Program-made: the position numbers and the translations under genes
NCBI GenBank assembly: GCA_032718475.1
Contig: JAUCBJ010004634.1
Coordinates: forward strand, 62,001-126,000
DNA: 64,000 nucleotides
Direction of reading: 5' to 3'
DNA from: Nemertoderma westbladi
Taxonomy: Eukaryota > Animalia > Xenacoelomorpha
Notes under the pieces: generated by a model
The model's input: the letters and a program-made list of their open reading frames with translations, nothing else
Told to the model about the DNA's origin: nothing
Database searches by the model: none
Shown: in pieces, positions 12,215 through 58,394 of the stretch
Layout: each line of letters begins with the position of its first letter
Position numbering within the stretch: position 1 is the first letter of the stretch

Positions 12215-12224
12215 CTTCCATTAA

Positions 12225-16010: not shown

Positions 16011-16480
16011 CCGCTCCCAGAAAATGGGATTTTCAGTCTATAAAATATAAAAATCACAGTTTCTAAAACATAAAGATACTCTAAACAGTTAGTTTTTCTT
16101 GCGCGGACGGCGTTCACGCAGTTTCCCGAGGCCAGCAAGAGTCCTTTTCTCTTTGGGGCGAGCCACTTTACTAGAAAGGCTATAACTCCTGGGTAAAGGG
16201 TGCAATACAATTGCATTAGAAGGTTTGGGTTTACGGTCGGTGTCTCGTCCATTTCGATATGCTTCTCCTCGAGCTGATTTTCCTCCGCTTGTCATGGGAT
16301 ACGTTCGTCCAAAACTCTCGCAGAGAATAGGGTTTTCTAAGCTTGATATCTTCTTAGAGATTCGAGATTTCCCAATCGAACTGAGATAAGGCCAATTCGT
16401 TTATCGATTGGACTTACTGTTATAACTTACGTTTATCTGAACAAACGCAGGTTTCTTTTTTGATCTTTATAGAATAGCGT

Positions 16481-19248: not shown

Positions 19249-22200
19249 TTACGTTATGGAGTCCCTAGATGTTTGAAGGATTAGGGAGGTGGTCGTGGGA
19301 AGAGAATCTTGCCTTCCACAGTTTCCGGAGAGTCCTCCATTCCCTTCCGGTAAACACAAACGACCGACTGGGTGATTGAGTCGCTGCATCCCGAATACAA
19401 TTCCAGGTTTCCTCTTCGTCCTGGAATAGTGACGATAGAAACATCGCTCTAGGTACACGACGGCCTTACAAAGCCGATTCCAGGAGCTATAGTGGTCCGT
19501 CGCTCCCTGCAGGAGAGGTGAGAGTCCCTGCGAGACGTCTGATGTTCCAGAGCTCCAATCGCTCTCTCTGATTTTCATGAAGGATCCACTCGCGGTGGGG
19601 AGGTCCAGATCCACGGCGTCGTCCCTGGCAATATGTAATACCGACAGATCTATCCCGGGTTCAAATAACTCCGATCCACCCGTCCGGGTTTTAGGTTTGA
19701 CTTTCTCCGCTCCCTTGGCTGGTCTAATCTCAGTCGGAGTAAGATGGGGAGGCCATTCATCCTCCTTACTCAGGAAGTCGGGTTCACCTAACCGGTCTGT
19801 AGTATCTGTCAGTTCTTGAGGAGTTGCTCCTCTGGAAGCGATGTCAGTTGGATTAAACTTCTTGGGGCAATATCTCCATTGATCTACATTGGAGCTAATA
19901 TCGTCATTATCTGAGGAGTATGGTGTTCCCTCAGTTGGGTCGTCTCCCTCACTAGTATCATCTTCCCATTCACTCACCTGGCAGACGCGATCTTGAAGCA
20001 GTCTTTCTCTGAGCGTTCTTCGGGAAGGTCCAGTAAGGTACCAACCTACTCTAGTTCTTACCGCATAGGTCTGAAGTGGTTGCGGTTGAGCAGGTCGTTT
20101 CTCCAATGTCTCCAGCGCCTCATGCGCGTTTTGACCGATTAATATTTGTACTCCAGGATAATCGGTGTCGAATCTAGGAATGTTAAGTTGTTGGGCATGA
20201 TCATCTTCGTCCCAATTATAAGGTTCCACTTGGGTGGTAGCGAAGTTCTTTATTGCCACCATTTTGACTGACCTTATACTGTGTTCTCCTAGTTTATCCT
20301 GTGGAGTGGACAACGCACCTACATAATAATCTGCGATTACTGTAGATTTCCAAACCTGCATAATTCCTGACATGTTTAGCTTAGTTCGGAACTTGGGTTG
20401 TCCAGCAAAGATGTCTTCGGCTAGTTCTTTATCGATGAATGTTCCTGTGCTGCCGGAGTCCAGGAGGGCGTTCACTACATAACTCCTTTTTGGTCCGTGG
20501 ACCCTTACCTGTACCACAGGAAATTCTCTAATCCCTACATTGGAAGTTGGCGCTTTCCAAAATGGTGGTTGACCAGAAGTAGTTAGAGTGAGGTCACTTT
20601 CTGTATCTTTTTCATAAGTGAGTGCTCGATACACTGCGGTATTTATCATGTAACAGGATTCGTTTTCGTCGGAGAACTCGTCCGTATAGAATCCTTCCAT
20701 CTCAGATTGATCAGTGTCGTTCACATCACTGAATTGGACATGTAGTTCGGAATCACTCACCTGACTCGGACTATTTCGCTCGAATTCAGTGTGCAACAAG
20801 ATATGATGTTTCGCACCGCACTTTGCACACCTTGCGTCGGAGTAACAGGTTCGCCGTTGGTGTCCTCGTCTGAGGCAATTATAACACAACCGCTTATCCC
20901 ACATGACTTCACGTCTGTCCTTTAGTGATTTCCTCAGGAATTCATCACACGCACTTAAACGGTGGGGCCCATCGCACAGCACACATTTGGGCTTGATGTT
21001 ACTTACTTTAACATGTGCTGTGTGGTGCACGTTCGTTCTTTCCTCGGGCTTTCTCACCTGAATTCTCTTGGGAGACGTAGGAGGAGTTTTTCTTACCTGT
21101 TTTCTCCTGTCATTGGTTCGAGACTTGAATTTACTTACCTGGTCTTTAGGCGTTTTATTGACATAATAAGATCTTTCAGTGTCTTTCCCGCTATCCTCTC
21201 CTTGAGAAGTCTGGCTTTCGCCATCGTCTGTATAACACACTGGTGTTACCCTTCTCCTAGAAACGGGTTTCTCACTTACCTTGTTTTCCAGTGTCTTCTC
21301 TCTGGACTGCCTTAGGAGCTGTAATTTCACTTCTCCATCTAAGAATGACATGAGATCAGCCATGGTAGGGTCTCGTCGTTGTTGTTCCATCATATATAAC
21401 ACTTTCTTGTCCCAGCGTGTACCTACTCCACCCTTGGGCAAAGTAGATGCTAAGGCTCCTACAACCATAGAATTCTGGTATTCATGAGACTTACCTAGCC
21501 AATCTAATTGTCTACAGATCTCCTGAATCTCATCGGAAAACTCTATAATCCCGCTGCTAAGAAACTTTCGGGGCGCTATTAATTTTGCATACAAATACCT
21601 AGCTATGTTATTCCTATTACCATACCTGATGTTTAGTGTATCCCAAACTTGTCTTAATCCGTCTGGATGTCCAATAAACTTTAACGCCATTAACTTGGGA
21701 GATCCTTCCAAGCACTCGATGAGGAATCTAAGTTTCTCTCCATTAGATAGCACAGAGTTCTGTATGTTATCTTTGTAATATTCATTAAAAGGTAACCATT
21801 TCATCTCATCTCCATTGAACTTGACGATCTCTCCCACCTTTACTGCTTGCCGGGCTTCGGTTCTAGCCATTTGACGCGTAAAACTTTCTTGGGCCATTGT
21901 GTTATTTAATATCGAGTTATCGGTATATAAATTTCTCGGATTATGATCCGGTCTATAGGGAATATCATTATCAACAGGTCTATAATTACTCTTAATAGGG
22001 TTCACTATAGGAGTTTCTACTTCGCTAGCAGTATAGATGCGTGTAGGCTCCACACCTTGCGCATGAGATACTTCAGACCTAACAGGTTGACACATTGTTA
22101 CAGGGGGTGGTAGTATACCCTTTTGTAAATTTACTAATTTATCACGTTCTAGCGCGATATTTTGCTGCACTTCTTGCAACTCTAATCTACTTTCCCTTAC

Positions 22201-24366
22201 TGTGCCCTTGAATTGCTGAACGGTCTCCTGCATCTGTCCGAGCAGGAGATCCATCCCCCATCGTCTCTCATCCACCCATTCAACCGCTGAAGCGGGATTC
22301 GCCAACGTTGTAGCGGGCGGACGAGGGACAACGGGCGACAAATCGTGAATATTTCGCTCGGAGTCCAGGGCATGAACTGTCTCATGGGCTGTTCTGCTGG
22401 GCACAGGTAGCTTAGTGCTGTGCAAAGGGAATTGAGAGGTAGGTTCAGGGAGTACAGGTGTCTCTACGACCGAAAGGGTGGCTTCGGGAACAGGCCTAAT
22501 TATTTCAGGCTCATCTACTATAGTAGGGAGTCTCTCTATTGTAATTATTTGGTCTGTGGGTTCTGTACAACCTAAGTTGGTGTTATTTAGTTGCCTTCGA
22601 ACAGCTGGAGGCAAATCAGGCAATTTCTGACGGTGGGATGTTCTTTTACGTCTGCTTAGGTGAGATCTATTTCCTTTGCCTTCAGTGTCGGTGGTATCGC
22701 CTTCCTCAGATGATGTATAACCTTGTCTTTTGGGAGTAGATTGATTCATCATCTGCATATTACTAGCTGTTAACTGTTTATTAAAGTTGTCTTGTCTCTC
22801 TTGAAGATTTTCCAACTCTAGTTGGGTTGTCTCTTCAGATGCCCTCCGTTCTGCTTCTGCCACTGCTATTTTTCTTTCCGCTTCGGCCGCCTTTCTTTCC
22901 GCTTCTGCTGCTGCCACTTTTCTTTCCGCTTCGGCCGCCTTTCTTTCGGCTTCTACTGCTGCAGCTGCCACCTTTCTTTCCGCTTCGGCCGCCTTTCTTT
23001 TGGCTTCTACTGCTGCAGCTGCCACCTTTCTTTCTGCTTCGGCCGCCTTTCTTTCGGCTTCTACTGCTGCAGCTGCCGCTTTTGCCTCTGCCGCTGCCGC
23101 TTTTGCCTCTGCCGCTGCCTCTGCCGCTTTTCTATCCACTTCTGCAGCTTTTCGTTCCGCTTCTGCCGCTGCCACTGCCGCTGCTGCTGTCTTTCTATCT
23201 TCTATACGTTTTTTCTTTACTTGTTCTTCTTGAACCTTAGCGATGCGGATGCTTTCATTGAATTTAGCTTGGTTCGCAGCTAACCTATCCACATCGATTG
23301 CGTCCAACACACGCTGGGCTCCTTCACTATTAGGGCTAAGCCCCTCTAACCTTCTCCTCAACTCTTCATCACCTAAAAAACGTTGATAGTCTGACAGATA
23401 GATGTCAATGGCATCCCTCTTATGCGGTTTCTCTGCCGTCGCTTCACTTTCCACTTGGGAAAAAGTAGCATCTGTTGATTCTCCATGGGTTGAGCGCTCC
23501 TCCAGCTGAGCTTTCCACTGAGCTGTTCCTTGAACCTGGAGACTCACCTGCTGAAACCAAGTCTTTACGGCAACTTGCAACGACGTGTCTTGTCTTCTTT
23601 TAGAAGCCTCCTCAAAGGCCAATAAGATTAGCCTAATTCGCAGAATTCTTTCTCTAACTTGATAAAGCAGTTGTCCCTGCTCTTGAGGTCCTTGAGGTTG
23701 TTGAAACAGCTGTTCTTTTACTCGCTCCATAGAGCTGAAGAATCCCTGTGCGTATCCGGCTGCGGACCTCTTCCACACAGCTGGATCGATGGTTTCCTTG
23801 GCTACTCCCATCTGGTGTATGTCTTCCCAGGCAGCTTCTGATAAATCAAACGGGAGTCCAGGTCCGGGGAAGTTCCATTGCGACTCGACAATAGATTTCA
23901 GTTCTTCCTTTGTGTATCCCGCATAACTATCTTTAGTCGATCGCTTACTTCTCGCCCAATCGATCTGGTGTTCTTCCACCGCGATCAATATCCTAGTGAG
24001 TACGGCTGCAGGAAGGATGAGAAGGGGATCCGAATAAACCGCATCCGTCATCTTTGCTCCGCGCTCGGGTGTCAGCTCTACAGTATCCTCACTACTGGAG
24101 CTGTTGGGCCGCTGAGAAATAAGTTCTTGGCTCGCGGGTTGTTGCTGTTCCGCTGCTTCTTGGTCCCGCTTGACCTGAGCTCGAGTGCCTATGATAGACC
24201 TACGATGTTGGACCAGCCTAGGTTCTGATATTACTACTGGAGGGATGATCTTCCTCACAGTGGGAGGTGAACTGAACTTAGGACTAGACGGTTCTACACC
24301 TCTATCTGAGTCGCAGATAGTTACATCTAATAAACTGTCTGACAGGTTCTGCTTAGTATCAGACAT
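19249..24366 (-). CDS. gag-pro: BEL/Pao Gag-protease polyprotein (1705 aa) lacking RT, most of RNase H and the integrase core
   Basis: Coiled-coil AAEAERK repeats, DUF1759-like KFNGDEMKWLPF, three Cys/His knuckles (CVLC..H..C, CYNC..H..C, CAKC..H..H), protease LLDSGS; no YxDD or integrase DDE motifs. Confidence 0.93.
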   Translation of the reverse strand: MSDTKQNLSDSLLDVTICDSDRGVEPSSPKFSSPPTVRKIIPPVVISEPRLVQHRRSIIGTRAQVKRDQEAAEQQQPASQELISQRPNSSSSEDTVELTPERGAKMTDAVYSDPLLILPAAVLTRILIAVEEHQIDWARSKRSTKDSYAGYTKEELKSIVESQWNFPGPGLPFDLSEAAWEDIHQMGVAKETIDPAVWKRSAAGYAQGFFSSMERVKEQLFQQPQGPQEQGQLLYQVRERILRIRLILLAFEEASKRRQDTSLQVAVKTWFQQVSLQVQGTAQWKAQLEERSTHGESTDATFSQVESEATAEKPHKRDAIDIYLSDYQRFLGDEELRRRLEGLSPNSEGAQRVLDAIDVDRLAANQAKFNESIRIAKVQEEQVKKKRIEDRKTAAAAVAAAEAERKAAEVDRKAAEAAAEAKAAAAEAKAAAAAVEAERKAAEAERKVAAAAVEAKRKAAEAERKVAAAAVEAERKAAEAERKVAAAEAERKAAEAERKIAVAEAERRASEETTQLELENLQERQDNFNKQLTASNMQMMNQSTPKRQGYTSSEEGDTTDTEGKGNRSHLSRRKRTSHRQKLPDLPPAVRRQLNNTNLGCTEPTDQIITIERLPTIVDEPEIIRPVPEATLSVVETPVLPEPTSQFPLHSTKLPVPSRTAHETVHALDSERNIHDLSPVVPRPPATTLANPASAVEWVDERRWGMDLLLGQMQETVQQFKGTVRESRLELQEVQQNIALERDKLVNLQKGILPPPVTMCQPVRSEVSHAQGVEPTRIYTASEVETPIVNPIKSNYRPVDNDIPYRPDHNPRNLYTDNSILNNTMAQESFTRQMARTEARQAVKVGEIVKFNGDEMKWLPFNEYYKDNIQNSVLSNGEKLRFLIECLEGSPKLMALKFIGHPDGLRQVWDTLNIRYGNRNNIARYLYAKLIAPRKFLSSGIIEFSDEIQEICRQLDWLGKSHEYQNSMVVGALASTLPKGGVGTRWDKKVLYMMEQQRRDPTMADLMSFLDGEVKLQLLRQSREKTLENKVSEKPVSRRRVTPVCYTDDGESQTSQGEDSGKDTERSYYVNKTPKDQVSKFKSRTNDRRKQVRKTPPTSPKRIQVRKPEERTNVHHTAHVKVSNIKPKCVLCDGPHRLSACDEFLRKSLKDRREVMWDKRLCYNCLRRGHQRRTCYSDARCAKCGAKHHILLHTEFERNSPSQVSDSELHVQFSDVNDTDQSEMEGFYTDEFSDENESCYMINTAVYRALTYEKDTESDLTLTTSGQPPFWKAPTSNVGIREFPVVQVRVHGPKRSYVVNALLDSGSTGTFIDKELAEDIFAGQPKFRTKLNMSGIMQVWKSTVIADYYVGALSTPQDKLGEHSIRSVKMVAIKNFATTQVEPYNWDEDDHAQQLNIPRFDTDYPGVQILIGQNAHEALETLEKRPAQPQPLQTYAVRTRVGWYLTGPSRRTLRERLLQDRVCQVSEWEDDTSEGDDPTEGTPYSSDNDDISSNVDQWRYCPKKFNPTDIASRGATPQELTDTTDRLGEPDFLSKEDEWPPHLTPTEIRPAKGAEKVKPKTRTGGSELFEPGIDLSVLHIARDDAVDLDLPTASGSFMKIRESDWSSGTSDVSQGLSPLLQGATDHYSSWNRLCKAVVYLERCFYRHYSRTKRKPGIVFGMQRLNHPVGRLCLPEGNGGLSGNCGRQDSLPTTTSLILQTSRDSIT

Positions 24367-26298
24367 GTTTGTTTACACAGTTGAATGCCTACTGCTATAT
24401 TACAGTCTAAGCAAGTCTAGTAATTCAGTATTAACTGCTAGCCTAGTAATTAATTACCGATACTGCTACTCAGTGTAGCGTGATATATATATAATATTAG
24501 GATACCGGTATGCTTATAGTATATATAAGTATTATTACAGACTAGGTTTTTTACAAAATACCGGTATATAATTTTAGCACAAATATATATAAATATATAA
24601 TAGGCCTATCGTGGATACCGGTATGCAGTTTACACTTATAGTATATATAAGTATAATTATTAACTAGAATTAATTACAGAATACCGGTATGATTTCAGCT
24701 TAATTTTATGAAAATAAAGATAATAAGCCTATTGTAAATACCGGTATATCAATTATTTTAAATAATTGAATTTCTGAATTTTAAGGGTTACTTGGTTACT
24801 TTAACTTACTTTATTACCGTTATTTAAGCAGTAGTCCAACTAATATTGAGACCTAATTGTTGTATGGCAGGCCTACTATTTATAAATCGTTTGAGTTGAT
24901 TTATAATATATATATACCCGTTGAAATGGGTTTTTGTCAATGTTTGAAATAAATGTTATTATTTCTGGGGGAGTCACTACACATAAGCTGTGCGCTCTCA
25001 GTGGAGTGCTACTTGTTAGACACTAAAACAAATAATTCTAATTTACCTAAGTTACTTAATACTACAAATTACGTACAATTCGGGTTGAGATTACAATCTC
25101 TAAATAAACACAAAAATTTAATTACAAATACACAAATACAAATTTTTAGGGTAATTTTACAAGAAGTCTACTAACCAGCCTAACAAAGGGTTAGAATATC
25201 TGGTTATTACAACGGACAGGTTACTACGGTATTTGAAAATAATAAGTAGTAGTAAATATACTGCGCTGTCCAGATAGGAAAATACCACCGCCTGACGACC
25301 TATAACCGTATCGCTATAGGTACTACGTTATGTATCACGGAGTGTCCCTACCTAGAAGTTAATTACCGCGGTCTACCAGAACCAACGTGCCTATTAACCA
25401 CTTTACAACACAAATACACTGCCTACACACTAATCACCTTCGGAAAGTACTGTACACTAAACCCTAAATTAGGTACAAGTACTTGTACAACAAATAATTA
25501 GTAGTTAAAAATACTTGAACAGCTAAAAGAACCACGGTATCTGCCGGAGTGACCAAAGCACAAAATCTCCAGTCTTTACCTACGCCGAGCAGCCCTGATG
25601 TAGTACCGGGGTTAGTTTAACTATAACGGTATGTATAACAAACACAATTACTGTAGGAATAAACTTGGGGATATGAATGTTGCGAATAATCGCATAAACT
25701 CTGAATAATAAATATTACGCTACGCGTACAAACCATTCAAACAAAATGCAGACCAAATACTGACAGACTACTATCAAGCCTAAACAAACTACGGTATATG
25801 CAGACTCCGAAATGATTAGTTAGTATGCGTTCTAACCCAGTAGTACGACTTATTCTTTCACAGGGGGTTTACCTCACAGCACTTGAAGCCCCTACTTTCC
25901 TAACTTAGCACTTTTTCGGACAGATGCTCTACACACACCGAAATTTCCTCAAACCCAACAACAGCCAGACAACTATCCAGCCTACAAATTATCTAAATAA
26001 AATTATACGCTACCCGTACGACTACACAAACAAAGTACAGACCAAACACTGGCGGACTCCTATCAAGCCTAAATAAACCACAGGACATGCAGACTCCGAA
26101 ATGGTTAAGTAGTATGCGTTCTAACCCAGTAGTACGACTTATTCTTTAGATGGGGGTTTACCTTACAGCTATGGCTGCCCCTACTTCCTAACCGTTCTTT
26201 ATCGGACATACACTCTACATGCACTGCAATCCGTTCAGACCTAATCAACAGTTAGCCAACAGTCAAGCCTACAAATTATCTGTACAATCTGAGCAGGC

Positions 26299-27514
26299 TG
26301 TAAAAGCCTTTGCTGAATTGCCCCGTTATTTTATTATCTTTTACATTAAAATACTCTGTATTTGATTTAATAAGTGTAAGAGACCGTATTATTGCTGTAT
26401 CGGTGTTTTTAGAGGATCTAAGACCTATTTCCTCCGTATGTGTACTGTGAAAGGCATATTTTATGATTCTATGGCAATTCGTGACGCAAAGGGGTGATAG
26501 CTACTCTTGAACAGTAGTTACTATGACTACGGTTAACAGCTGACATTCATACGTGTTGATTTCCTTTGTTCTACGGCGTCTCTCAGTTCAGTCAGCCAAT
26601 TAGAGCGTTTTTGTGGCTCCTTGTACAGAAAATTTCCGAGAAATGACGCAATGCCTATGTGCAGTGTTTACATTCAGTCTTGAGCCAAAGAAAGAACGGT
26701 TTGGAAGTATTTTGTGCTGTACTGCTTTTTAGTCGTACACTAGTAGGTTTAATTATAAAGGGCATATATCCTTTAACTGTAAATATCTCACTGCTGACAT
26801 ACCGGTACTGATGTACCGATCTACCTAACTGTTCAGTTGTTGTTTTATACTGCTATTTACTGTCGGTTCTTCATAATATGGTTGATGAATTATTATATTT
26901 GGAATAACGATAAATAACCCCGCAACCCAATATTCTTGATATACCGAAGGTAAGAGAGAAAGGTTACCAATAACGATTGTGACTTATGTTAAAGTGGTTT
27001 GAAGTGAATCTAATGTTATTTGATAGACCCTACATGAGTCAGTCCTGTGTTCCTTTTATATGTGACTAAAATCAGTGAAGATTGGCAGATTAGTGTGCAG
27101 TATTGTGCAGCATAGTGTATGAGTGAGTCTGTTAACGAAGCATTTCCTAAAGAATGCGCCATATATGTGGATTGTAACTAAGCCATATCGTTGTGAGTAG
27201 TTTAAGTCATAACTCTGTTTATATAGATAGAGCGCCACGTCCTAAAGGAACTGTTAATATTCCCCGAAGGTGAATAATATTGTCAGAGATTATATAATAC
27301 TGTCAGTCGAATAATACATTAGGCTTACATAGCAATACGATTAAGCCGTCGAACCCAATCTCCCGGGTATATCCAGCGGGTGAATGATCGCGCACCGATT
27401 GGTTTCGACTAGTGTAGTGAATCAAATACTTGTCAGAGGCTAAAAGCTGATTTATTATCTAGAAGACATCCTAATTTGGCGGGTTAAACTGCCAAAGGTC
27501 TGAAAGCGCGAACA
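26299..27514 (+). repeat. BEL-family LTR (1216 bp) in inverted orientation relative to copy A
   Basis: Plus strand TGTAAAAGCC...AAAGCGCGAACA; reverse-complement similar but not identical to 14799-16010; flanks CAGGC and AGTAC are not a TSD. Confidence 0.92.
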
Positions 27515-42376: not shown

Positions 42377-43519
42377 TGTTTGCGCTTTTAAGACCTTTGA
42401 CAGTTTAACCTGCCAAAATTAGAATGTCTTTTGGATGATAGATAGTCTTTAGCCTATGACGAGTATTTGATACACTACATTAGCCGAAGCCAGTCTATGC
42501 GCAATCATTCACCCGTTGGATATACCCGGGAGACTGAGTTCGGAGCTTAATGATTGATGGTGTAAGCCTACCGTATTATTCGACTGATCGTAATATATAA
42601 TCTCTGACAAATATTATTCACTTTCGGGAAATATTAACAGTTCCTTTAGGACGTGGCGCTCTAAATATGTAAACAGAGTTATGACTTAAACTAGTCACAA
42701 CGAAAAGGCTATAGATTCACGTATATGGCGCATTCTTTAGGAGATGCTTTGTTATCAGTTACACTCATACACAATGCTGCACAATACTGCACACTAATCT
42801 GCCGACCTTCACTAAATTTAGTCACGTATAAAGAGAGCAACAGACAATTTATGTTGGGCATATGAAATAGCATTAAATTCACTTCAAACCACTTAACATA
42901 GGTCGCAATCGTTTATCTGTAACCGGTCTCTCTAACCTTTAGTATATCAAGAAGGTGGGGTGTCTGACTATTGATCAGTATTCCGATATAATATTTCATC
43001 AACAAATATAATGAATAACCGACAGCAAAAGCAGTAATATTAGTAATTTATGGATAGTGAGTGAATAAGTGAGTAGATAACAGATATACGTTCTATAATT
43101 AAGCCTACTAATGTAAGACTAAAGACTGAAACACGGAGGTGCCAAAAGCCGGTGTTCTTAGGCTCTGGGCAAAAACATAACACTGAACTACTGAGTTTCT
43201 GTATCCACCTCCAACACAGAGACAAAAAACGCTCTGATTGGTCAACCGAACAACGAGAGAACAAAGAAACAAAGAAATGTCGACGTGGCAATATCAGCTG
43301 TTAGCCGTCGTCATGGTAGCGACACTGTTTTCAAGAGTATCTAGCTTATCGCGTCACGAGATTGCGGATTATGTCCTCTAAAGTACAAATACAGAAGAAA
43401 TGACTTTTATGTCCTCTAAAACACCAGTACAGCAAGGACACGGCCCTTTTATGCCTGGTAAACCAACTACAGAGTACTTTAAGGGAAAATAACCGGTTAA
43501 TGACGCAAAAGCTTTTACA
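42377..43519 (-). repeat. 3' LTR of copy B
   Basis: TG...CA termini; matches 57247-58389, with one substitution noticed (GCCGACC ~42803 vs GCTGACC ~57673). Confidence 0.97.
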
Positions 43520-43545
43520 CCGCTCCCAGAAAATGGGATTTAAGT

Positions 43546-43821: not shown

Positions 43822-44011
43822 AACTCTCGCAGAGAATGGGGTTGTCTAAGTTCGATATCTTCTTAGAGATTCTGGATTTCACAATCGAACTGAGATAAAG
43901 ACAATTCGTTTATCGCTTGGACTTGCTGTTACAACTTACGTTTATCTGAACAAATGCAGGTTTACTTTCTGATCCTTCCTTCTTTCCTTTCTGATCTTTG
44001 TAGAATAGCGT

Positions 44012-45142
44012 TTAACTCGTTTGGTACAACGTTCTCCGCCACTTTGGTGACAGGTTATATCGTGTTAAGCCGGGACGATGGTAAGGGTTAAACGGCGATA
44101 TTAAATGTCCGCGTCCCAATCCGGCTAGGTAGAATGGGCTAATATCTAGGAAGCCCACAACTAGGGTGCCACCGACTAATTGTTCAGGTAACACTAGATC
44201 TTTGAGCAGTGAGTACAGCTCGGGAGGATCCGTCATACTAATAGGATCAAGAGTCTGAAGTCTCACTAGGGAATGAGGAGTTCTGATCGAGTATTCCGAA
44301 ACTCTGATCATTGGTTTATTTAAGGATCGTCTGAGTCGAACGAGCGTAGGTGATACATCGAACAAGTTTCGCTCGAAACTCCCGTAAGTATAGCGAGTAA
44401 AACCGTGTTTAAAGCAACGTCTCCGCGGATGTTTATGTCTTTCCGTTTGTTGGTTGGGTCTTGGGCATTCATCGCAATAATACCCAAAAACGTACGTCTT
44501 GTAGGGGAAACGCGAGTGATCTTTCTCCAGCTTACAATATTCCTCCATCCGTTCGAAGCTATTCGGTACAACAGGTAGCGGTCGATCGGCGGTAAGATAC
44601 ATCATAGGGGAATAGAGCCGTTTGAGTTCTACCATGCGGTCATGATGTATACCTTGAGGATATCGAGTTTCTAGATTTTGTTGACTGGCAATATTGAGAT
44701 ATGTTTCTATCAGGAATTCCAGATAATCGTTGAAGTCGCTGCGTTTATCCGGCTCCTCAACGTCTTCTCTTTCGAGTCTGTTTCGAATAGAATTCTCGTG
44801 TTCCATTCTCGGTTTATCGTTCCGCCTCCGCTGGGTAGGATATTTCAATCGTACCATTTCCCTTTTGGTGTCGACATTGTCCGTATCGTGTAAATCGATA
44901 GGATGACCAGTAGTTAAGAAGTCCACATACGTACCATTACGATGCGTATAGCGAGCGGTGAATTTCTTATAGTCCAACTCACGCGTGAGCTGCTCTTGGG
45001 ACATTGGCGGTTCGATATAACGACTATCGTCCTCCGCAGCAGTTGGACCAGCGTCGCTGTGTATCAAGCTATCAACAAACGCTTGTAAAGGTAGAGTATA
45101 TCGCTCCCTGATACCAAGATCATCTTCTATCAACTCAATCAT
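44012..45142 (-). CDS. Extra 3' accessory ORF of the BEL element (376 aa), unknown function, possible Cys/His metal-binding cluster
   Basis: ATG-initiated, same strand as pol, lies between pol and the 3' LTR; homolog in copy A with many synonymous differences. Confidence 0.8.
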   Translation of the reverse strand: MIELIEDDLGIRERYTLPLQAFVDSLIHSDAGPTAAEDDSRYIEPPMSQEQLTRELDYKKFTARYTHRNGTYVDFLTTGHPIDLHDTDNVDTKREMVRLKYPTQRRRNDKPRMEHENSIRNRLEREDVEEPDKRSDFNDYLEFLIETYLNIASQQNLETRYPQGIHHDRMVELKRLYSPMMYLTADRPLPVVPNSFERMEEYCKLEKDHSRFPYKTYVFGYYCDECPRPNQQTERHKHPRRRCFKHGFTRYTYGSFERNLFDVSPTLVRLRRSLNKPMIRVSEYSIRTPHSLVRLQTLDPISMTDPPELYSLLKDLVLPEQLVGGTLVVGFLDISPFYLAGLGRGHLISPFNPYHRPGLTRYNLSPKWRRTLYQTS

Positions 45143-46794
45143 ATCTGCTATATAAATTTATCCATATTATAATGAGTTTATATTTAGGCGAGCGGGCGTC
45201 GCTGCCTACCCCTCTCTGCCCCCGGACAGTGCGAGATCCTCAGCGCTGGTGTACTTTCGCCGATGTGCCTATCGCCAACGTCGTAGCTGCACAACGACTA
45301 CAACAACCAGCACGAGCCACTCCACCGTCCGTCCCAAAGGCTTAGATATACTTCAGGTTCTTACTGGAGAGTTAGGGTTACTTTCACAATTGCGACTCGC
45401 TACTGTAAACACACCTTAGTAGTAACATTCACCTACAAACGCACAAATTCCACGTAACAGTCACAAATGGTACACATTCTATCACACATTCGGGTCATTT
45501 GTCCGTTAGTCAAGTGCCTTCCAGAATGTCACATTGTTATTATGTATCCTTGGATACTAGCGGTGCGCTATTTATTCACTATGCTATTCAATGCGCAAGC
45601 CCTTTATTGTTCTTTTAACTCACTTCTAATTCTAGCGTGGTTGTTGCCATGGTGACATTATGGAAAGCTAGCGGTAGAATTAGGGTAATTCTCATGCATA
45701 CAGATCTGGGATGCTATTTAATAGTAAGTCTTTAATAGTCAATATCATCTTTATACATGATTCTATGAATTTTATCGGCTATTGACTATACATTGGAGAT
45801 TCTCGCACACAAATACACTTAATAAAGTGAATCTCCGCTCCCATGATCTATTAATTAATGGAATTTTGGGAATGTTATAAATTGTATAAAATGACAATTT
45901 ATTAAATTCATTGAAATATCTGAATTTAAATTTATTCCCGTAAATTTTATTATTTAATGTTAAATAGACACAATTTTATTCCAGAACGTGTCTGGGGACT
46001 GGGATCCTTGATTCTAGGAATTTTGTCCTTTTAAGAGTATCGGTAAATGCTACGATATCTTAATCGACTAGAATTTTAAAGGATCTGATATTTGACAGAT
46101 TTTTGTAAATATTAATAATTAATATTTAGGATGGGCACCAGTTTATTCCAGAACTTGTCTGGGGACGTTAACCATTGATTCTAGAAATTTGTCTTTCAAG
46201 TATATCGGTGGGTGCCGCGATATCTTAATCGACTAGAATTGCAGATGGTCAAAGGGTTTAACAGATTTATTTTGCGTTATACGCTACTGTTAAAGGGACA
46301 TCACGCTACTATATGTATTATTTAATATATGGTATGAGAGCAATATCGCACGAAGCAATGTCAGTGTGAAGAGGCAAGTCGTTTCCAAAGTCTACCCAGA
46401 GCTTGGTTTAGCCGAGACACGAGGATCTGAACTTTGCATTCCTAATACTCTGCCTACCAATAATACTTGAATATAGTAGTGGCTTTATTGTACTTTAATA
46501 AGTACGGATATTTCATCTTACTGTAGTCACGTATTGATAATGTAATACGGGCAGTAAGGAAAGAGAAAAAGAATTATTTCTCGCCGTCGCACTAAATATA
46601 TAATATACGTAATTAAATAATAAACGCGAATATATATTGCACTAATCTACTAAATAATCTCTAAAATACTATACTACTAAATAAAATTAAATAAAACGAT
46701 TAAAATAAAATTACATAATAATACATACATAAATATAAAAATAAAACAAATACAAATATAAAGTAATATGGTCACACACCCACTCCAGCCGTTG

Positions 46795-47425
46795 TTAAGT
46801 TGGGGAGTCCCTAGATGTTTGTTGGATTAGGGAGGTGGTCGTGGGAAGAGTATCTTGTCTCCCATAGTTTCCGGAGAGTTCTCTGTCTCTTTCCAGTAAA
46901 CATAAACGTCCCACCAGGCGATTGAGCTGCTGCGTCTCGAAGACAATTCCCGGTTTCTTGAAGTTACGTCGCATGACGACGAGTTCTACCGATCGCACCA
47001 AACCGTCATCCGAGATGTGGGTCTCGATGATACGACCTGTCTGCCACCTCTTACGTGGAAGATCTACATCCACAATAAGAACCATGTCTCCAGCGCTAAC
47101 GTTTTCTTGCTGCGCAAACCACTTAGTTCGAAGTTGTAGCGTGGGCAGATAATGTTTTTCGAAATGGTCAGCGAAACGACGGGATAACAACTGCATGAGT
47201 TGCCAAGTTTGTCGGCAGTATTCGTCTCCGTCTGTGATTTCTGATTGTGGGAGCATGGCTACAGGTTTCTTCAGTAGGAAGTGCGCGGGTGTTAGCGCCT
47301 CCAGGGAATCGGGACTCGATGAGACTGGCATAAGCGGTCTCTCGTTGAGATAGGCAGCGATTTCTTCCATTAACGTCCACAAAAGTTCGTCGGTGAGATA
47401 AGCGCGACAAGGCACTATAAAATGA
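46795..47425 (-). pseudogene. pol: Integrase C-terminal part (DUF5641-like), separated from the core by a 1-bp frameshift
   Basis: LNERPL...LTPAHFL...YLPTLQLRTKW...GDMVLIVD...WQTGRI...DGLVRSV; frame changes just after WERLIRSVKTA. Confidence 0.9.
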
Positions 47426-49523
47426 ATGCCGTCTTCACACTTCTTATTAATCTCTCCCAACTTCCTCCCCACCAAGAGGCGTCGGCGGCGTTGAAGGTCC
47501 AACTAGACGCTGTTACTCGTAGTTGGTCGTCCACCTGTCTTTGGTTCCAATCTTTGACGTAAGCTTTGATTTCATTGTTGGCACCAATGAAGTTTGTTCC
47601 CTTATCAGATCTCATCGTGTTACTAGTGCCAAAGCGAGCGATCTGTCGTCGTAAGCTTAATAGAAAGCTGTTGGTAGATAAATCGTTCACCATATCGAGA
47701 TGGATGGCTCTACAAGTCATACAAACAAAGATTACACACCATCTCTTGACTATAGTCCTAGCACGATATACTTCAATAGGGCCAAATAAATCCACACCGG
47801 TGTTAGTAAAGGGTGGTTCATAAAAGCTTACTCGTTCCCTAGGTAATTCTGCCTCTCTCTGTGTTAAAGGCCTACTGAATGCTTTCCTACAGGGTATACA
47901 ATTCCTAAGAACTTGGTTCAGAGCTCTACGGGGTTTATAAAAATAATAGCGAGTTCGAATTTCGCTAAGAACTCGTTCTCTACCAGCATGATAAAGTTTG
48001 CTGTGAACATCTACTATCATCTTGACTTGTATTTCAAGATTTCTAATGAGTATGGGGAACTTAGTATCAAAGGATAATGGGGCATTCGTTAACCTTCCTC
48101 CAACACGTATCAACCCATCTATCATTGTGCTAGAGAAACGATCCCTTAAGCGCATCTGTGGATTTCTCAACAACAGGAAATACTTATCGGAATCTTCATA
48201 GCATTGTAAGAGTCTCAGCATCTGTTTGTTGGTTTCTTCATGCTCCTGATAACTGATCTTCTCCTTCAGAAACCTGGTGGGTATCTTATATGGGGGAAGA
48301 TCTTTAATAACATGGACCTGCACTGATGTGATTGGAGCGGTATCACCCTTTGTTTTCATCCCAGAGTAGTGATGGTGAAAACATCTCTTTAAATATGTAA
48401 CGGCCTTACAGAGCCGATTCCAGGAACTGTAGTGATGTATCGCTCTCTGCAGAAGAGGTGAGAGTCCTTGCGAGACGTCTGGTATACCAGATTTCCAATC
48501 CTTATCACGGATTTCCACAATGGGTTTATTTGTGGCTGTGGGTTTCTGATCCAAAGCGTCGTCTCCGGAAGTATGTAGTACAGACAGATCCACTGTGGGT
48601 TTGAATAACTTCGATTTACTCGCCTGAGTTTTAGGTTTGACTTTCTCCGCTCCCTTGGCCTGTCTAATTTCTGCTGTAGTAAGATGAGGAGGCCATTCTT
48701 CTTCTTCTTGGTAGAGGAAGTCGGGCCCACCTAACCAGTCTGGAGTATCTACCAGTTCTTGTGGAGTTGCTCCCCTGGAAGCGATGTCCGCTGGATTAAT
48801 CGTTCCGGGGCAATGTCTCCATTGATCCATCGTCGTGCGACTGAGTATAATAGCTACTCTGTTGGTAACGAAGACGCTGAACTGACAGACTTCATTGGTT
48901 ATATACTCCAACACGAGTAAAGCGTCGGTCCAATAGACAGTTTTCTCCAGGGGATAGTCGATCTGTTCTGTTACATTCCGGCCGATGGCTGTAGCGTATA
49001 GAGCCGCTTTTAACTCCGCTCGAGGAACTTTCAACTTGTTGTTTATTAATGCCTTAGAGGTAACCAAGGCGACTTTAATTCCGTCCGGAGTTTCCACCCT
49101 TAGGTAGGCTACTATACCTATTCCCATATCGCTGGCGTCTCCAAACACATGGAGTTGATATGAATACGTAGGGAGAACATGACCAAAATATGAACGGGAA
49201 ATTATAAAGTTTTCGATGGCTGGTAGAGAATCTTCCCATTTCATCCACTTCTTTAATAATTCTCCCTTAAGTGGATCGTCCCATGAGTGGTTTTCAAGCC
49301 ACATTTGTTGTACTAAACTCCGAGCAATTAATATAACTGGGCTAATAAATCCCAATGGATCGAAATAAGTGCTCAGGATACTTAAACAAATCCATTTAGT
49401 CCGAACTGGATTATCTCGCTGTTTTAGTTGGAAAAACAGGATATCTCTTTCTGTGTCCCATTTCAAACCAAGGGTCTTAGTTTCTGGGAGATCATCCTTT
49501 ATTAGATCTAGGTCTTTTGCTCC
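47415..49523 (-). pseudogene. pol: RT C-terminus, RNase H and integrase core
   Basis: YFDPLGF, LHVFGDAS, PRAEL, WTDA, NPADIASRG; integrase H-H-C-C finger, GVDLFGP, SDKGTNF, WERLIRSVK; in frame with the upstream ORF across the TGA at 49524. Confidence 0.93.
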
Positions 49524-52500
49524 TCAATCTTCTACCGGGATCGACTCCAGAAACTCACGGGAGTTGCTAGTGAATTTAGTTAATCGAAATCCACCTCTTT
49601 TTAAGCATTCCACCGTTCCTTTAGCGACCTCAATGGCTTCTTCGACTGATGGAAGGGACTTCAGATTATCATCCATGTAGATGTCTCGTTTGATATTGTC
49701 GATCACTTCTTTAGAGAAGGCGTCTCGGTTGTCATCCGCAGTGGTGCGCACCACGGAACAGGCGTTTGAAGGGCTCGAGATTATCCCAAAGGCTTGGATG
49801 GTCATCCAGTATTCCACAGGTTTCTTATTGAGGTCTCCTTCAGGCCACCACAAAAATCGTAGGCTATCTCGATCCCTATCCAGCGCTTTGACTTGTAAGA
49901 ACATGCCTTCTATATCTGAGGCGAAAGCAATGGAGTATTGTCTTAATCTTAATAGTATTCCCAACAAGGATTGAAGTAAGTTGGGTCCGGGTAACAATTC
50001 AGAATTAAGAGATTGGCCCATATAAAGGGCGGAACCGTCAAACACCACTCGTACTTCATGGGGTTTACCGGGTTTGGGAACGTAATGGTGAGTTAAGTAA
50101 TACGTTCTCTCAGTTATAGGGGTTTCTTCCGGTACTAGCTCCGCATATCCCTTGCTAATAAACTTCTTCAACTGTGTTTTATACATTTCTTTAGCTGAAG
50201 AATTTGCCGTAAGGCGTCGATGTAGTTGAGCAATTCTTTTCTCTGCCAAAGGTCTGTTGTTAATGAACTTTGGTTCTCGCTTTCGGAAAGGAAGTCCGAT
50301 CTCATACCTACCTTGATCTTTAAGAAAACGAGTAGTTGTCGCTTGGATCTGCTTGGCTCTTTCTTCCTCCACCGATAGGGCCTTATCGTAGGAGTTGGGC
50401 TCTACGACCTCTTGAGTAAAGAATCTCACGGCGTGTTCATCCCGAGTCTTGGCATTATAACGTTCAATGACGTCATTAAGCTCGTCGTTATAGTCGTCTC
50501 GCTTGGATGGGAGAAGGAGTTGACATAAGTTCACTTGATTTTGCCAAGTCTCGCTTTCCTTAAGGAGATCGATGGCATTCTCCTCATCAAAGAGTTGATG
50601 TATATCGTCGTTGTCTGAGGAGTATGGAGTTCCCTCAGTTGGATCGTCGAACTCACTGTTCTCAACTTCCCATTCTCGCGCTTGATATACCTGATCTTTA
50701 GGTAATCTTTCCATGAGAGTTCTACGGGAAGGGCCAGTAAAGTACCAACCTACTCTAGTTCTTCCCGCATAAACTTGTAGAGGTTGCGGTTGAGCAGGTC
50801 GTTTCTCCAATGTCTCGAGCGCCTCATGCGCGTTTTGGCCGATGAGTATTTGCACTCCAGGATAATCTGTCTGGAATCGAGGTATCTTAAGATGTTGGAT
50901 GCTCTCATCCTCGTCCCAATTATAAAGGTCTGCTTGAGTAGTAGCGAAGTTCTTTATAGCCACCATTTTCACTGACCTTATGCTATGTTCTCCTAGTTCG
51001 TCCTGGGGGGTGGACAACGCACCTACATAATAATCCGCTGTTACTGTGGATTTCCAAACTTGCTTAATCCCTGACATGTTAAGCTTAGTTCGGAACTTGG
51101 GTTGTCCAGCGAATATGTCTTCGGCTAGCTCTTTGTCGATGAATGTTCCTGTACTACCGGAGTCAAGGAGGGCGTTCACTACATAACTCCTTTTTGGTCC
51201 GTGGACCCTTACCTGTACCACAGGAAATTCTCTAATCCCTACATTGGAAGTTGGCGCTTTCCAAAATGGTTGTTGATCAGAAGTAGTTAGGGTAAGGTCG
51301 CTGTCCGTATCCTTTTCATACGTGAGTGCTCGATACACTGTGGTATTTATTGTGTAACAGGATTCGTTTTCGTCGGAGAACTCGTCTGTATAGAATCCTT
51401 CCATCTCAGATTGATCAGTGTCGTTCACATCACTGAATTGGACATGTAGTTCGGAATCACTTACCTGACTCGGACTATTTCGCTCGAATTCCGTGTGCAA
51501 CAAGATATGATGTTTCGCACCGCACTTGGCACATCTTGTGTCAGAGTAACAGGTTCGCCGTTGGTGTCCATGTCTGAGGCAATTATAACACAACCGCTTA
51601 TCCCACATGACTTCACGTCTCTCAGTTAATGATTTCTTTAGAAATTCATCACACATATTCAAGCGATGGGTCCCATCACATAGCGCACATTTCGGTTTGA
51701 TGTTACTCACCTTATTTTGCGTAACATTGTGCACACTTGCTTTTTCTTCGGGCTTTCTCACCTGAATTCTCTTGGGAGACGTAGGAGGAGTTTTTCTTAC
51801 CTGTTCTCTCCTGTCATTGGTTCGAGACTTGAATTTACTTACCTGATCTTTAGGCATTTTATTTACGTAATAAGATCTGTCAGTGTCTTTCCCGCTATCT
51901 TCTCCTTGAGAAGTCTGGCTTTCGCCGTCATCTGTATAACACACTGGTGTTACCTTTCTCCTAGAGACGGGTTTTTCACTTACCTTGTTTTCCGGTGTCT
52001 TCTCTCTGGACAGTTTCAGGAGCTGTAATTTCACTTCTCCATCTAGGAATGACATGAGATCAGCCATGGTAGGGTCTCGTCGTTGTTGTTCCATCATATA
52101 TAACACTTTCTTATCCCAGCGTGTACCTACTCCACCCTTCGGTAAAGTAGAAGCCACTGCTCTAATAACCATAGCACTCTGATACTCATGAGACTTACCT
52201 AGCCAATCTAATTGTCTGCAGATCTCCTGAATCTCATCGGAAAACTCTATAATCCCGCTGCTAATAAACTTTCGGGGCGCTACTAACTTTGCATACAAAT
52301 ACCCAGCTATGTTATTCCTATTACCATACCTGATGTTTAGTGTATCCCAAACTTGTCTTAATCCGTCTGGATGTCCAATAAACTTTAATGCCATTAACTT
52401 GGGAGATCCTTCCAAGCACTCGATGAGGAATCTAAGTTTCTCTCCATTAGATAGCACAGAGTTCTGTATGTTATCTTTGTAATATTCATTAAAAGGTAAC

Positions 52501-53615
52501 CATTTCATCTCATCTCCATTGAACTTGACGATCTCTCCCACCTTTACCGCTTGCCGGGCTTCGGTTCTAGCCATTTGACGCGTAAAACTTTCTTGGGCCA
52601 TCGTGTTATTTAATATCGAGTTATCGGTATATAAATTTCTCAGATTATGATCCGGTCTATAGGGAATATCATTATCAACAGGTCTATAATTACCCTTAAT
52701 AGGGTTCACTATAGGAGTTTCTACTTCGCTAGCAGTATAGATGCGTGTAGGCTCCACACCTTGCGCATGAGATACTTCAGACCTAACAGGTTGACATTGA
52801 CACATTGTTACAGGGGGTGGTGGTATACCCTTTTGTGTATTTACTAATTTATCGCGTTCTAGCGCGATACTTTGCTGCACTTCTTGCAACTCTAGCCTAC
52901 TTTCCCTTACTGTGCCCTTGAATTGCTGAACGGTCTCCTGCATCTGTCCGAGCAGGAGATCCATCCCCCGTTGTCTCTCATCCACCCATTCAACCGCCGA
53001 AGCGGGATTCGCCAACGTTGTAGCGGGTGGACGAGGGACAACGGGCGACAAATCTTGAATATTTCGCTCGGAGTCCAGGGCATGAACTGTTTCATGGGCT
53101 GTTCTGCTGGGCACAGGTAGCTTAGTGCTGTGCAAAGGGAATTGAGAGGTAGGTTCAGGGAGTACAGGTGTCTCTACGACCGAAAGGGTGGCTTCGGGAA
53201 CAGGCCTAATTATTTCAGGCTCATCTACTATAGTAGGGAGTCTCTCTATTGTAATTATTTGGTCTGTGGGTTCTGTACTACCTAAGTTGTTATTTAGTTG
53301 CCTTCTAACAGCTGGAGGCAAATCAGGCAATTTCTGACGGTGGGATGTTCTTTTACGTCTGCTTAGGTGAGATCTATTTCCTTTGCCTTCAGTATCGGTG
53401 GTATCGCCTTCCTCAGATGATGTATATCCCTGTCTTTTGGGAGTAGATCGATTCATCATCTTCATATTACTAGCTGTTAACTGTTTATTTATGCAGTCTT
53501 GATTCTCCTGAATATTTTCCAATTCTAATTGGGCAATCTCTTCAGCCGCTATCCGCTCCGCTTCTGCCGCTGCTCTTGCCGCTTTTCTTTCCATTTCGGC
53601 TGCTTTTCTTTTCGC
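49524..53615 (-). pseudogene. gag-pol: Gag core, zinc knuckles, aspartic protease and reverse transcriptase
   Basis: KFNGDEMKW, three Cys/His knuckles, LLDSGS, RVVFDGS, SDIEGMFLQV, FGIISSP, YMDD; ends at a premature TGA. Confidence 0.95.
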
Positions 53616-54929
53616 TTATGCCTCTGCCGCTGTCGCTTTTCTTTTCGCTTCTGCCTCTGCCGCTGCCGCTGCCGCTTTTCTTTCCATTTCGGCTGCTTTA
53701 CTTTCCTCTTCGGCTGCTTTCCTTTCGGCTTCTGCAGCTGCTACTGCTGCTTTCTTTCTGTCTTCTATGCGTTTTTTCTTCACCCTTTCTTCTTGGTCTC
53801 TAGCGATGCGGAGTTGTTCATCGAATTTAGCTTGGTTCGCCGCTAACCTATCCACATCAATTGCGTCCAACACACGCTGGGCTCCTTCACTATTAGGGCT
53901 AAGTCCATCTAGCCTTCTCCTCAACACTTCATCTCCCAAAAAACGCTGATAGTCTGACAGATAGATGTCAATGGCATCCCTCTTACGCGGTTTCTCTGCC
54001 GTCGCTTCACTTTCCACTTGGGAAAAAGTAGCGTCTGTTGATTCTCCATGGGTTGAGCGTTCCTCCAGCTGAGCTTTCCACTGAGCTGTTCCTTGAACCT
54101 GGCGACTCACCCGTTGAAACCAAGTCTTTACGGCAACTTGCAACGACGTGTCTTGTCTTCTTTTAGAAGCCTCTTCAAAGGCTGATAATATTAGCCTGAT
54201 TCGCAGAATTCTTTCTCTAACTTGATAAAGCAGTTGTCCCTGCTCTTGAGGTCCTTGAGGTTGTTGAAACAGTTGTTCTTTTACTCGCTCCATAGAGCTG
54301 AAGAATCCCTGTGCGTATCCGGCTGCGGACCTCTTCCACACAGCTGGATCGATGGTTTCCTTGGCTACTCCCATCCGGTGTATGTCTTCCCAGGCAGCTT
54401 CTGATAAATCAAACGGGAGTCCGGGTCCGGGGAAGTTCCATTGCGACTCGACCATAGACTTCAGTTCTTCCCTTGTGTATCCCTCATAACTATCTTTAGT
54501 TGATCGCTTACTTCTCGCCCAATCGATCTGGTGTTCTTCCACCGCGATCAATAACCTAGTGAGTACGGCTGCAGGAAGGATGAGAAGGGGATCCGAATAA
54601 ACCGCATCAGACATCCTTGCTCCGCGCTCGGGTGTCAGCTCTACAGTATCTTCACTACTGGAGCGGTCGGGCCGCTGAGAAATAAGTTCTTGGCTCGCGG
54701 GTTGTTGCTGTTCCGCTGCTTCTTGGTCCCGCTTGACCTGGGCTCGAGTGCCTATGATAGACCTATGATGTTGGACCAGCCTAGGTTCTGTTATTACTAC
54801 TGGAGGGATGACCTTCCTCACAGTGGGAGGTGAACTGAACTTAGGACTAGACGGTTCTACACCTCTATCTGAGTCGCAACTACTTACATCTAATAAACTG
54901 TCTGACAGGTTCTGCTTAGTATCAGACAT
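53616..54929 (-). pseudogene. gag: Gag N-terminal extension, ended by a nonsense mutation
   Basis: Near-identical to the N-terminus of the 1705-aa ORF; TAA at 53616-53618 replaces GAA in the repeat GCA-GAA-GCG-AAA-AGA-AAA. Confidence 0.92.
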
Positions 54930-57246: not shown

Positions 57247-58389
57247 TGTTTGCGCTTTTAAGACCTTTGACAGTTTAACCTGCCAAAATTAGAATGTCTT
57301 TTGGATGATAGATAGTCTTTAGCCTATGACGAGTATTTGATACACTACATTAGCCGAAGCCAGTCTATGCGCAATCATTCACCCGTTGGATATACCCGGG
57401 AGACTGAGTTCGGAGCTTAATGATTGATGGTGTAAGCCTACCGTATTATTCGACTGATCGTAATATATAATCTCTGACAAATATTATTCACTTTCGGGAA
57501 ATATTAACAGTTCCTTTAGGACGTGGCGCTCTAAATATGTAAACAGAGTTATGACTTAAACTAGTCACAACGAAAAGGCTATAGATTCACGTATATGGCG
57601 CATTCTTTAGGAGATGCTTTGTTATCAGTTACACTCATACACAATGCTGCACAATACTGCACACTAATCTGCTGACCTTCACTAAATTTAGTCACGTATA
57701 AAGAGAGCAACAGACAATTTATGTTGGGCATATGAAATAGCATTAAATTCACTTCAAACCACTTAACATAGGTCGCAATCGTTTATCTGTAACCGGTCTC
57801 TCTAACCTTTAGTATATCAAGAAGGTGGGGTGTCTGACTATTGATCAGTATTCCGATATAATATTTCATCAACAAATATAATGAATAACCGACAGCAAAA
57901 GCAGTAATATTAGTAATTTATGGATAGTGAGTGAATAAGTGAGTAGATAACAGATATACGTTCTATAATTAAGCCTACTAATGTAAGACTAAAGACTGAA
58001 ACACGGAGGTGCCAAAAGCCGGTGTTCTTAGGCTCTGGGCAAAAACATAACACTGAACTACTGAGTTTCTGTATCCACCTCCAACACAGAGACAAAAAAC
58101 GCTCTGATTGGTCAACCGAACAACGAGAGAACAAAGAAACAAAGAAATGTCGACGTGGCAATATCAGCTGTTAGCCGTCGTCATGGTAGCGACACTGTTT
58201 TCAAGAGTATCTAGCTTATCGCGTCACGAGATTGCGGATTATGTCCTCTAAAGTACAAATACAGAAGAAATGACTTTTATGTCCTCTAAAACACCAGTAC
58301 AGCAAGGACACGGCCCTTTTATGCCTGGTAAACCAACTACAGAGTACTTTAAGGGAAAATAACCGGTTAATGACGCAAAAGCTTTTACA
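57247..58389 (-). repeat. 5' LTR of copy B
   Basis: Direct repeat of 42377-43519, followed on + by the TSD CATCC. Confidence 0.97.
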
Positions 58390-58394
58390 CATCC

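Follow-up and report, generated by a model that had tools for sequence, protein, structure and literature searches.

The window analysed here, a 64,000-nt stretch of a Nemertoderma westbladi contig (GCA_032718475.1, JAUCBJ010004634.1, positions 62,001 to 126,000 of the forward strand), contains on its minus strand a BEL/Pao retroelement with a long open frame, ORFx, located after pol and before the 3' LTR. Elements such as Cer7 and Tas have env-like genes. The env-like genes of BEL/Pao elements also comprise the F-type gene of roo and the chuvirus-like gB type of mosquito elements (described in the excerpts of PMC13524379), and the ICTV profile, in which BEL/Pao elements are metazoan and their replication is called poorly understood, gives only env-like extra genes for them (PMC8742986). 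A previous sequence-only reading of the locus proposed that ORFx is a non-env accessory gene carried by a giant element. We asked whether ORFx is a gene of its element or a segment that sits there by chance or decays after capture, and, if it is a gene, how it would be expressed and what it would do.

The copy with the open ORFx (copy A, Table 1) has LTRs that differ at one base and is flanked by a 5-bp duplication, and hence is a young insertion. Its interior consists of a 5' UTR of 2,317 nt, gag-pol of 8,135 nt, a spacer of 1,652 nt, ORFx, and a terminal segment of 492 nt. The gag-pol frame has Pfam matches to DUF1759, Peptidase_A17, Integrase_H2C2 and DUF5641; the three knuckles, LDSG and YMDD stand in the BEL order, and the listed homologs have the same BEL domains. 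The PR-RT-RH-INT order with BEL-type domains is that of Belpaoviridae, as are LTRs within 0.2-1.2 kb, the target duplication and the polypurine tract. The length of 16,013 bp falls outside the 4.2-10 kb given by ICTV for Belpaoviridae (PMC8742986), a range that is descriptive and not a criterion. The word "giant" is nevertheless overstated, as the element stays below the bar of 20 kb of PMC6431247; in PMC3118150, full-length elements were bounded at 15 kb. The gag-pol frame is broken by in-frame stops at 53616 and 49524 and by a frameshift near 47415, so copy A was likely mobilised by proteins of other copies.

Table 1. Features of the two element copies in the window (all coordinates are window positions)
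Feature	Position	Strand	Details
BEL/Pao copy A	58389-42377	minus	16,013 bp
5-bp target-site duplication, copy A	58390..58394	minus	partner 42372-42376
5' LTR, copy A	57247..58389	minus	1,143 bp, TG...CA; single base apart from 3' LTR
gag-pol, copy A	46795..54929	minus	long N-terminal extension, DUF1759, three zinc knuckles, PR, RT, RH/Peptidase_A17, INT, DUF5641
Eight AG/GTRAG splice-donor motifs	51207..52200	minus	in gag; first intron bases 52198, 51983, 51842, 51800, 51761, 51710, 51464, 51212
Two diverged 135-bp direct repeats	45940..46240	minus	non-coding spacer, pol to ORFx
Block before the ORFx ATG	45143..45242	minus	common to A and B; TATAAA 45182-45177, 52-nt AG-free zone, tandem TAG/CAG acceptor-like site ending 45145; candidates only
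ORFx, accessory ORF	44012..45142	minus	376 aa, ATG-initiated, open in copy A
ORFx core, strongest purifying selection	44543..44992	minus	codons 51-200; silent 31 of 55 changes, 15.3 expected
Cys/His cluster	44405..44476	minus	ORFx codons 223-246, basic stretch: C223, C226, H236, H238, C243, H246
3' LTR, copy A	42377..43519	minus	1,143 bp; short purine-rich tract just before
Copy B	14799..26318	minus	3' LTR 14799-16010, open gag-PR frame, 5' end rearranged
Copy B gag-PR frame	24366-19249	minus	1,705 aa open; RT, RH core, INT deleted
Broken ORFx homolog, copy B	16481..17606	minus	5 indels; 5 internal stops when read in A's register

Several features of the leader and of Gag stand apart from the question of ORFx. 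Belpaoviridae are described with an 18-nt primer-binding site for tRNA-Arg or tRNA-Gly after the 5' LTR; in copy A, although very young, no TGG-led site adjoins this LTR (57202-57246), and copy B lacks the region. The longest complement inside the LTR measures 8 nt, and AATAAA is absent from the LTR. The 5' UTR contains a tandem duplication of 289 bp (56316-56895), each unit with a weak donor-like AAGGTAA (56778, 56491), which could provide a non-coding leader. The Gag N-terminal extension of several hundred residues (53619-54929 in copy A, 22800-24366 in copy B) evolves with dN/dS 0.29 and has zero matches in Pfam, PDB and the comparator BEL loci described below; it is followed by Ala/Glu/Lys/Arg repeats, unequal in number between the copies. 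An Rfam search of the element returned nothing real, and two spacer windows fold at z -2.9 and -3.9 against a crude control of 30 shuffles.

The second copy in the window, copy B, carries the disrupted ORFx homolog reported by the sequence-only reading, which we located at 17606-16481. Two deletions leave the copy B frame open, ending at the normal pol stop (19249-24366); by eye the pol deletions have no GT-AG ends, and the copy may belong to a gag-PR-only non-autonomous subfamily. An LTR of 88% identity lies inverted against the copy B 5' UTR (26299-27514), without target duplication.

If ORFx were a chance frame, neither its length nor the pattern of changes between the copies should stand out. 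The frame starts 1,652 nt past the pol stop and ends 492 nt before the 3' LTR (45142-44012, minus strand), in agreement with the earlier description of a 376-aa ATG ORF about 1.65 kb past pol, and when the spacer was shuffled 2,000 times, no stop-free frame exceeded 196 codons, vs 376 for ORFx. The 21-codon stretch that had been put forward as evidence of selection indeed contains exactly 7 silent and 0 replacement changes, yet it is the best stretch of the alignment, and the very next codon carries a replacement change. Over all 373 aligned codons, dS is 0.36, dN is 0.13, and dN/dS is 0.35 (bootstrap 0.25-0.47), decreasing to 0.06-0.27 in codons 61-205. For comparison, the two remaining sense frames have dN/dS of 0.89 and 1.03, the spacer upstream has 0.72-1.01, and gag, 0.21-0.29. 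One antisense frame of ORFx yields 0.42, but has 19-20 stops, and the low ratio results from third positions shared with ORFx. The silent changes number 75 of 180, compared to 52.8 expected, and none of 2,000 permutations matched for base and CpG context reached this value. The excess is concentrated in the core, where there is a patch rich in Arg and, predicted with low confidence, a helix at 135-160; it is weak at the C-terminal end and absent from codons 1-50 and 201-350.

The divergence between the copies varies along the element, being 0.09 in the spacer, 0.16 in ORFx as a whole, and 0.13 at ORFx replacement sites. As the spacer is less diverged than the replacement sites, the copies are mosaics, and all pairwise rates carry that caveat. 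A compensating pair of indels puts A and B out of register over 44532-44486, where the 7 substitutions are too few to tell the selected register. Past the ORFx stop (43520-44011), where the coding frame may once have extended, the silent excess is weak, with 8 of 16 in-frame changes silent vs 5.0 expected (p 0.07); the 84-aa frame before the 3' LTR has no Pfam match. A one-base length variant at 43819 is frequent in all four sequencing runs examined.

The family-wide variation was assessed in public sequencing data: six of seven runs (four studies) contain the ORFx stretch or a part of it, and four of the seven (X1, X3, X4, X6) were analysed. In X1, 22,423 contigs lie over a 4.1-kb stretch of the element and 6,139 over ORFx, a similar density per base (contig counts, not copy numbers). 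Thus, the family is abundant, and ORFx is present in more than a few copies. Places with indels are much rarer relative to places with substitutions in ORFx (16/349) than in the rest of the 4.1 kb (100/506, obtained by subtraction; p 3e-9), and none of the 12 best-supported indels of the stretch is within ORFx. We classified the 40 best-supported of the 349 ORFx variants, which are not a random sample. Among the 24 with a share below 0.85 in X1, 15 are silent vs 7.1 expected (p 0.001), whereas the remaining 16, where nearly all other copies differ from A, comprise 14 replacement and 2 silent changes (4.4 expected silent). Hence the family kept ORFx under selection while the lineage of copy A drifts, and the changes of copy A itself look neutral. 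That X6 is an RNA run is a guess, and the spacer as well as ORFx is covered by its contigs; thus it gives no information on ORFx expression. No ORFx transcript or splice junction was observed.

If the ORFx segment were an independent nested element or repeat residing there by chance, it might differ in composition from its surroundings, as it does (G+C 0.45 vs 0.35 in the spacer), but should also have termini of its own. The pol-LTR stretch has no inverted termini and no transposase match, ORFx occupies the same place in both copies with continuous flanks, and the fractions of mapped contigs that continue into unlike sequence are 0, 0, 0.07 and 0.12 in the four runs. We rejected the nested element as a candidate and consider a chance insertion highly improbable. 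The proposal of an element-borne non-env gene once under purifying selection is borne out: dN/dS is 0.35 and not 1, matches to env or other transposable-element proteins were not found, and the segment lacks its own termini. We conclude that ORFx is, with high confidence, a selected gene of its BEL/Pao family.

The predicted product is hydrophilic (GRAVY -0.81), with 4 Cys, an acidic N-terminus, basic patches, and a basic and aromatic composition. It has no N-terminal hydrophobic stretch, and the only borderline hydrophobic window (residues 322-340, KD19 1.61) is less hydrophobic in copy B, where it is preceded by a stop. By hydropathy and composition, the absence of an evident signal peptide or transmembrane anchor noted before is thus upheld, and the features of env-like proteins (signal peptide, Cys-rich ectodomain, C-terminal anchor) are lacking. 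Neither does ORFx resemble the sORF2/FAST-like proteins, as it has 376 aa (vs 63-107), no Gly at position 2, and no conserved membrane helix. The C-x2-C...H-x-H...C-x2-H cluster pointed out earlier is present in copy A, but its interpretation as a metal-binding zinc finger or a conserved part finds no support: copy B has Tyr in place of C223, and a silent excess is absent from codons 201-350. We therefore refrain from calling it a zinc finger. NES-like patterns occur at the chance level (10 vs 8.1), and no clear NLS was seen in ORFx.

Homology searches with ORFx produced zero matches in Pfam (whole protein and halves), in PHROGs, in a set of 5.8 billion proteins at near and longer lengths, and among 1.84 billion representatives, where a donor gene was sought as well. 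The best PDB sequence had E 0.78, the best ESM Atlas values, 0.80 and 0.86, are leads only, and of 77 pattern matches in metagenome contigs 0 were confirmed. The single match in a viral contig involved a 93-aa phage protein (E 0.24) and was discarded as a chance word of 8 residues. Single-sequence AlphaFold models had pLDDT 32 and 37 and were unusable, and Foldseek gave no match at E 0.001 for the model with pLDDT 37. The protein searches found no sequence similarity to viral fusogens (F, gB, class II), and these database searches were also blank with respect to CERV of the Cer1 element.

These data bear on the possibility that an env or another viral or host gene was captured and now decays as ORFx, its silent excess being older than the capture. 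Fusogens have been captured by BEL/Pao elements (excerpts of PMC13524379), ORFx differs from gag-pol in codon use (more CGN Arg, p 0.02; more NCG, p 0.004), 14 of the 16 near-private changes of copy A are replacements, and the ORFx of copy B is broken. Were the excess inherited from a donor gene, though, it would not be seen among variants differing between family copies, which arose after the capture. Since, in addition, indels are depleted family-wide, env features are absent, and the 1.84 billion representatives contain no donor gene, we regard a captured remnant as improbable.

We then considered how common such a gene is in this position, using 104 other BEL loci with 28-43% pol identity: 79 from the best 80 of at least 549 confirmed metagenome matches, and all 25 from genome contigs. 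ORFx has no match in these 104 loci (best E 6.8). The INT C-terminus was present in 100, one of which was dropped as having no stop (L105); of the remaining 99, the 3' LTR could be located in 28, 10 were circular, and in 61 the gap was not placed. The median distance from pol to the 3' LTR is 248 nt in the 28 loci, compared to 3,275 nt in copy A, and the median distance from pol to gag in the circular loci is 1,075 nt. Among the 38 loci with a resolved gap, a 238-aa sense ORF was observed in L091 (4234-4947, between pol and the next gag); it has no Pfam match and shows by eye a motif like that of SGNH/GDSL esterases. In L090 the gap frame resembles the next gag by eye, in L049 it proved to be the next gag, and the 3-kb gap of L093 contains no ORF. 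Thus, an extra gene in the pol-LTR slot is rare among these distant BEL relatives.

If ORFx is translated from a spliced message, splice sites should be present upstream. Following a generic donor scan, we noticed, post hoc, that all 8 sense AG/GTRAG motifs of the 16-kb element fall within 990 nt of gag (52198-51212), a segment that starts at the DUF1759 end, spans the knuckles and stops shortly before the protease. Shuffling of synonymous codons yields 1.3 motifs on average, and 0 of 5,000 shuffles reached 8; the antisense strand has 2, and the 10.4-kb flank, 0. Copy B keeps 7 of the 8 donors and has 9 in total vs 1.7 expected. The same tendency was not observed in the comparator loci: the 54 of 104 with an unbroken frame of at least 1,300 codons have 37 donors vs 44.7 expected, and the count in the best kilobase is 0-2 in 53 of the 54 and 4 in one, L076 (195-5864). 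The latter has 8 donors vs 1.45 expected, scattered, four of them in the C-terminal part of INT, and no extra ORF.

On the acceptor side, an acceptor-like AG stands 2 nt before the ORFx ATG; the spacer contains 10 AG-free zones of at least 40 nt, so this candidate is not unique. By phase arithmetic, splicing from the donor at 52198 (phase 1) would place ORFx in frame behind about 910 gag codons, although a single match with three possible phases is weak; from the seven phase-0 donors, a stop would follow two codons past the junction, with the ORFx ATG overlapping that stop. ORFx may accordingly be expressed from RNA spliced from the gag donors to the AG just before its ATG, the first junction giving a Gag-ORFx protein similar to CERV and the other seven, Gag-only products. 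From the sequence of these sites, we lean slightly towards splicing of the ORFx RNA.

Alternatively, ORFx could be driven by its own internal TATA promoter and encode a nuclear factor that transactivates the LTR or counters its silencing, on the model of the foamy-virus internal promoter with tas and bet; an internal promoter and Tas are given in a figure legend of PMC7828637. The TATAAA 40 nt before the ORFx ATG (45182-45177) and the GC-rich block before it are conserved in A and B, the start ATG is kept in both copies, and the acidic N-terminus and basic patches would suit a transactivator. On the other hand, with such a promoter the 5' UTR would be only about 10 nt long, TATAAA is present twice in the AT-rich spacer, the spacer and the LTR share words of at most 10-11 nt, and the donor cluster would be unexplained. 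CpG depletion is absent from the element (o/e 0.84-1.34), which makes a DNA-methylation antagonist unlikely and, BEL/Pao being metazoan, points to a probable invertebrate host. We consider the internal promoter rather unlikely; anti-silencing or targeting roles of ORFx, suggested previously, have no direct support.

Whatever its expression, the predicted soluble product likely acts in trans. Copy B has no internal stops in the 1,705 gag-PR codons and 5 in ORFx (p 2e-4); its loss of ORFx, as of pol, while gag stayed open fits such action, and so do the near-identical LTRs of copy A despite its broken gag-pol. Judged from these two copies, action in trans is probable.

A known system with this anatomy is Cer1 of C. 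elegans. According to the excerpts of PMC10309623, its post-pol ORF, formerly taken for env, is the C-terminal half of CERV, a spliced nuclear protein required for the export of genomic RNA. Hence, the arrangement is less unprecedented than had been claimed, CERV being a close working precedent. The strong gag donors, the orphan ORF for a soluble protein past pol, and tolerance to its loss in cis fit the CERV pattern, and with eight strong donors the element would need some means of retaining and exporting its full-length RNA, which is the job proposed for ORFx. By analogy, ORFx would act on the unspliced RNA of its own element and help it to leave the nucleus, as CERV does for Cer1. Our tentative reading, held at less than even confidence but ahead of each alternative, is that ORFx may be a spliced, trans-acting regulator of the element's RNA, CERV-like in its working but without detected homology to CERV; the more specific job of RNA export or splicing control is possible, though doubtful. 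The donor cluster could also serve Gag-only splicing or U1 protection of the long RNA, independently of ORFx.

The differences are substantial. Cer1 is a Ty3/gypsy element, while the element studied here is BEL/Pao; a sequence or fold link of ORFx to CERV or Rev was not detected; the Cys loop of CERV is invariant and essential, whereas the Cys/His cluster of ORFx is not conserved in copy B; and for CERV the localisation and export have been demonstrated, while for ORFx they are predictions (CERV data from the same excerpts of PMC10309623). A far-reaching version of the regulator reading would be that BEL/Pao independently evolved the lifestyle of complex retroviruses, with a battery of gag donors yielding Gag-only and Gag-ORFx proteins, and ORFx serving as a Rev/CERV-like exporter with a new fold for the ~15-kb genomic RNA, which would let the defective copies A and B spread in trans; we deem it unlikely.

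Instead, ORFx alone or fused to Gag could be a component of the cytoplasmic particle (an RNA chaperone, assembly or targeting factor) and not a nuclear regulator. The possible in-frame fusion after most of the capsid-region domain and the basic and aromatic composition speak for such a role; the unusually long 5' UTR and genome and the lack of a tRNA primer site beside the 5' LTR also suggest special packaging or priming needs. However, structural or sequence support is absent, and copy B lost ORFx yet kept gag. A particle role thus appears quite unlikely.

Compared to other systems, ORFx shares with the env-like BEL/Pao genes the superfamily, the slot and the strand, but differs from them in having no signal peptide, conserved membrane anchor, Cys-rich ectodomain or fusogen match. 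The ORF3s of gypsy-like elements of bdelloid rotifers are, like ORFx, family-specific sense ORFs after pol in an animal element, and are typically expressed from spliced messages, but they can be recognised as captured enzymes (DEDDy, GDSL) or as membrane proteins, whereas ORFx is an orphan (excerpts of PMC5408684). In Retand, the pol-LTR region is 2.9-6.6 kb, vs 3.3 kb here, and both regions have a conserved ORF, that of Retand possibly regulatory; however, the additional ORFs of plant elements, including Retand TRP28, belong to plant gypsy, and those of Retand, unlike ORFx, are antisense with a named domain (parts of PMC7264820 and PMC11963269). The sORF1 and sORF2 of the Drosophila MDG1 group resemble ORFx in being selected, non-env accessory genes of an LTR element in an animal, and sORF1 is nuclear; they differ in size (70-110 aa vs 376 aa) and location (mostly upstream of gag vs after pol), and sORF2, a membrane protein, bears a myristoylation motif that is absent from ORFx (parts of bioRxiv 10.1101/2025.03.14.642691).

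Thus, non-env genes in the env slot are already known from gypsy; new here are the BEL/Pao host element, the absence of a homolog, and the gag donor cluster. The literature searched by titles and abstract starts, with few subscription journals covered, describes no non-env gene after pol in BEL/Pao. ORFx and the donor cluster make it testable how an element with a single gag-pol frame makes excess Gag, and how a BEL element exports its long unspliced RNA. Should ORFx work in the manner of CERV, control of the Rev type would have arisen separately in another reverse-transcribing family; otherwise, it is still an orphan protein of a very abundant family, in a slot that is empty in nearly all resolvable comparators.

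Several minor observations were made along the way. BEL pol occurs in 25 contigs of prokaryote genomes, mostly likely host contamination, and one BEL element with 95%-identical LTRs (L089, 10001-11681) is surrounded by bacterial genes in a Wolbachia record of 1.4 Mb. Elsewhere in the window, the long open frames at 5600-12300 (a 63-bp satellite) and 39025-40620 (a 48-bp array) are repeat artefacts, and partial LTRs of the same family are situated at 41855-42292 (70% identical) and 63878-64000 (95% identical).
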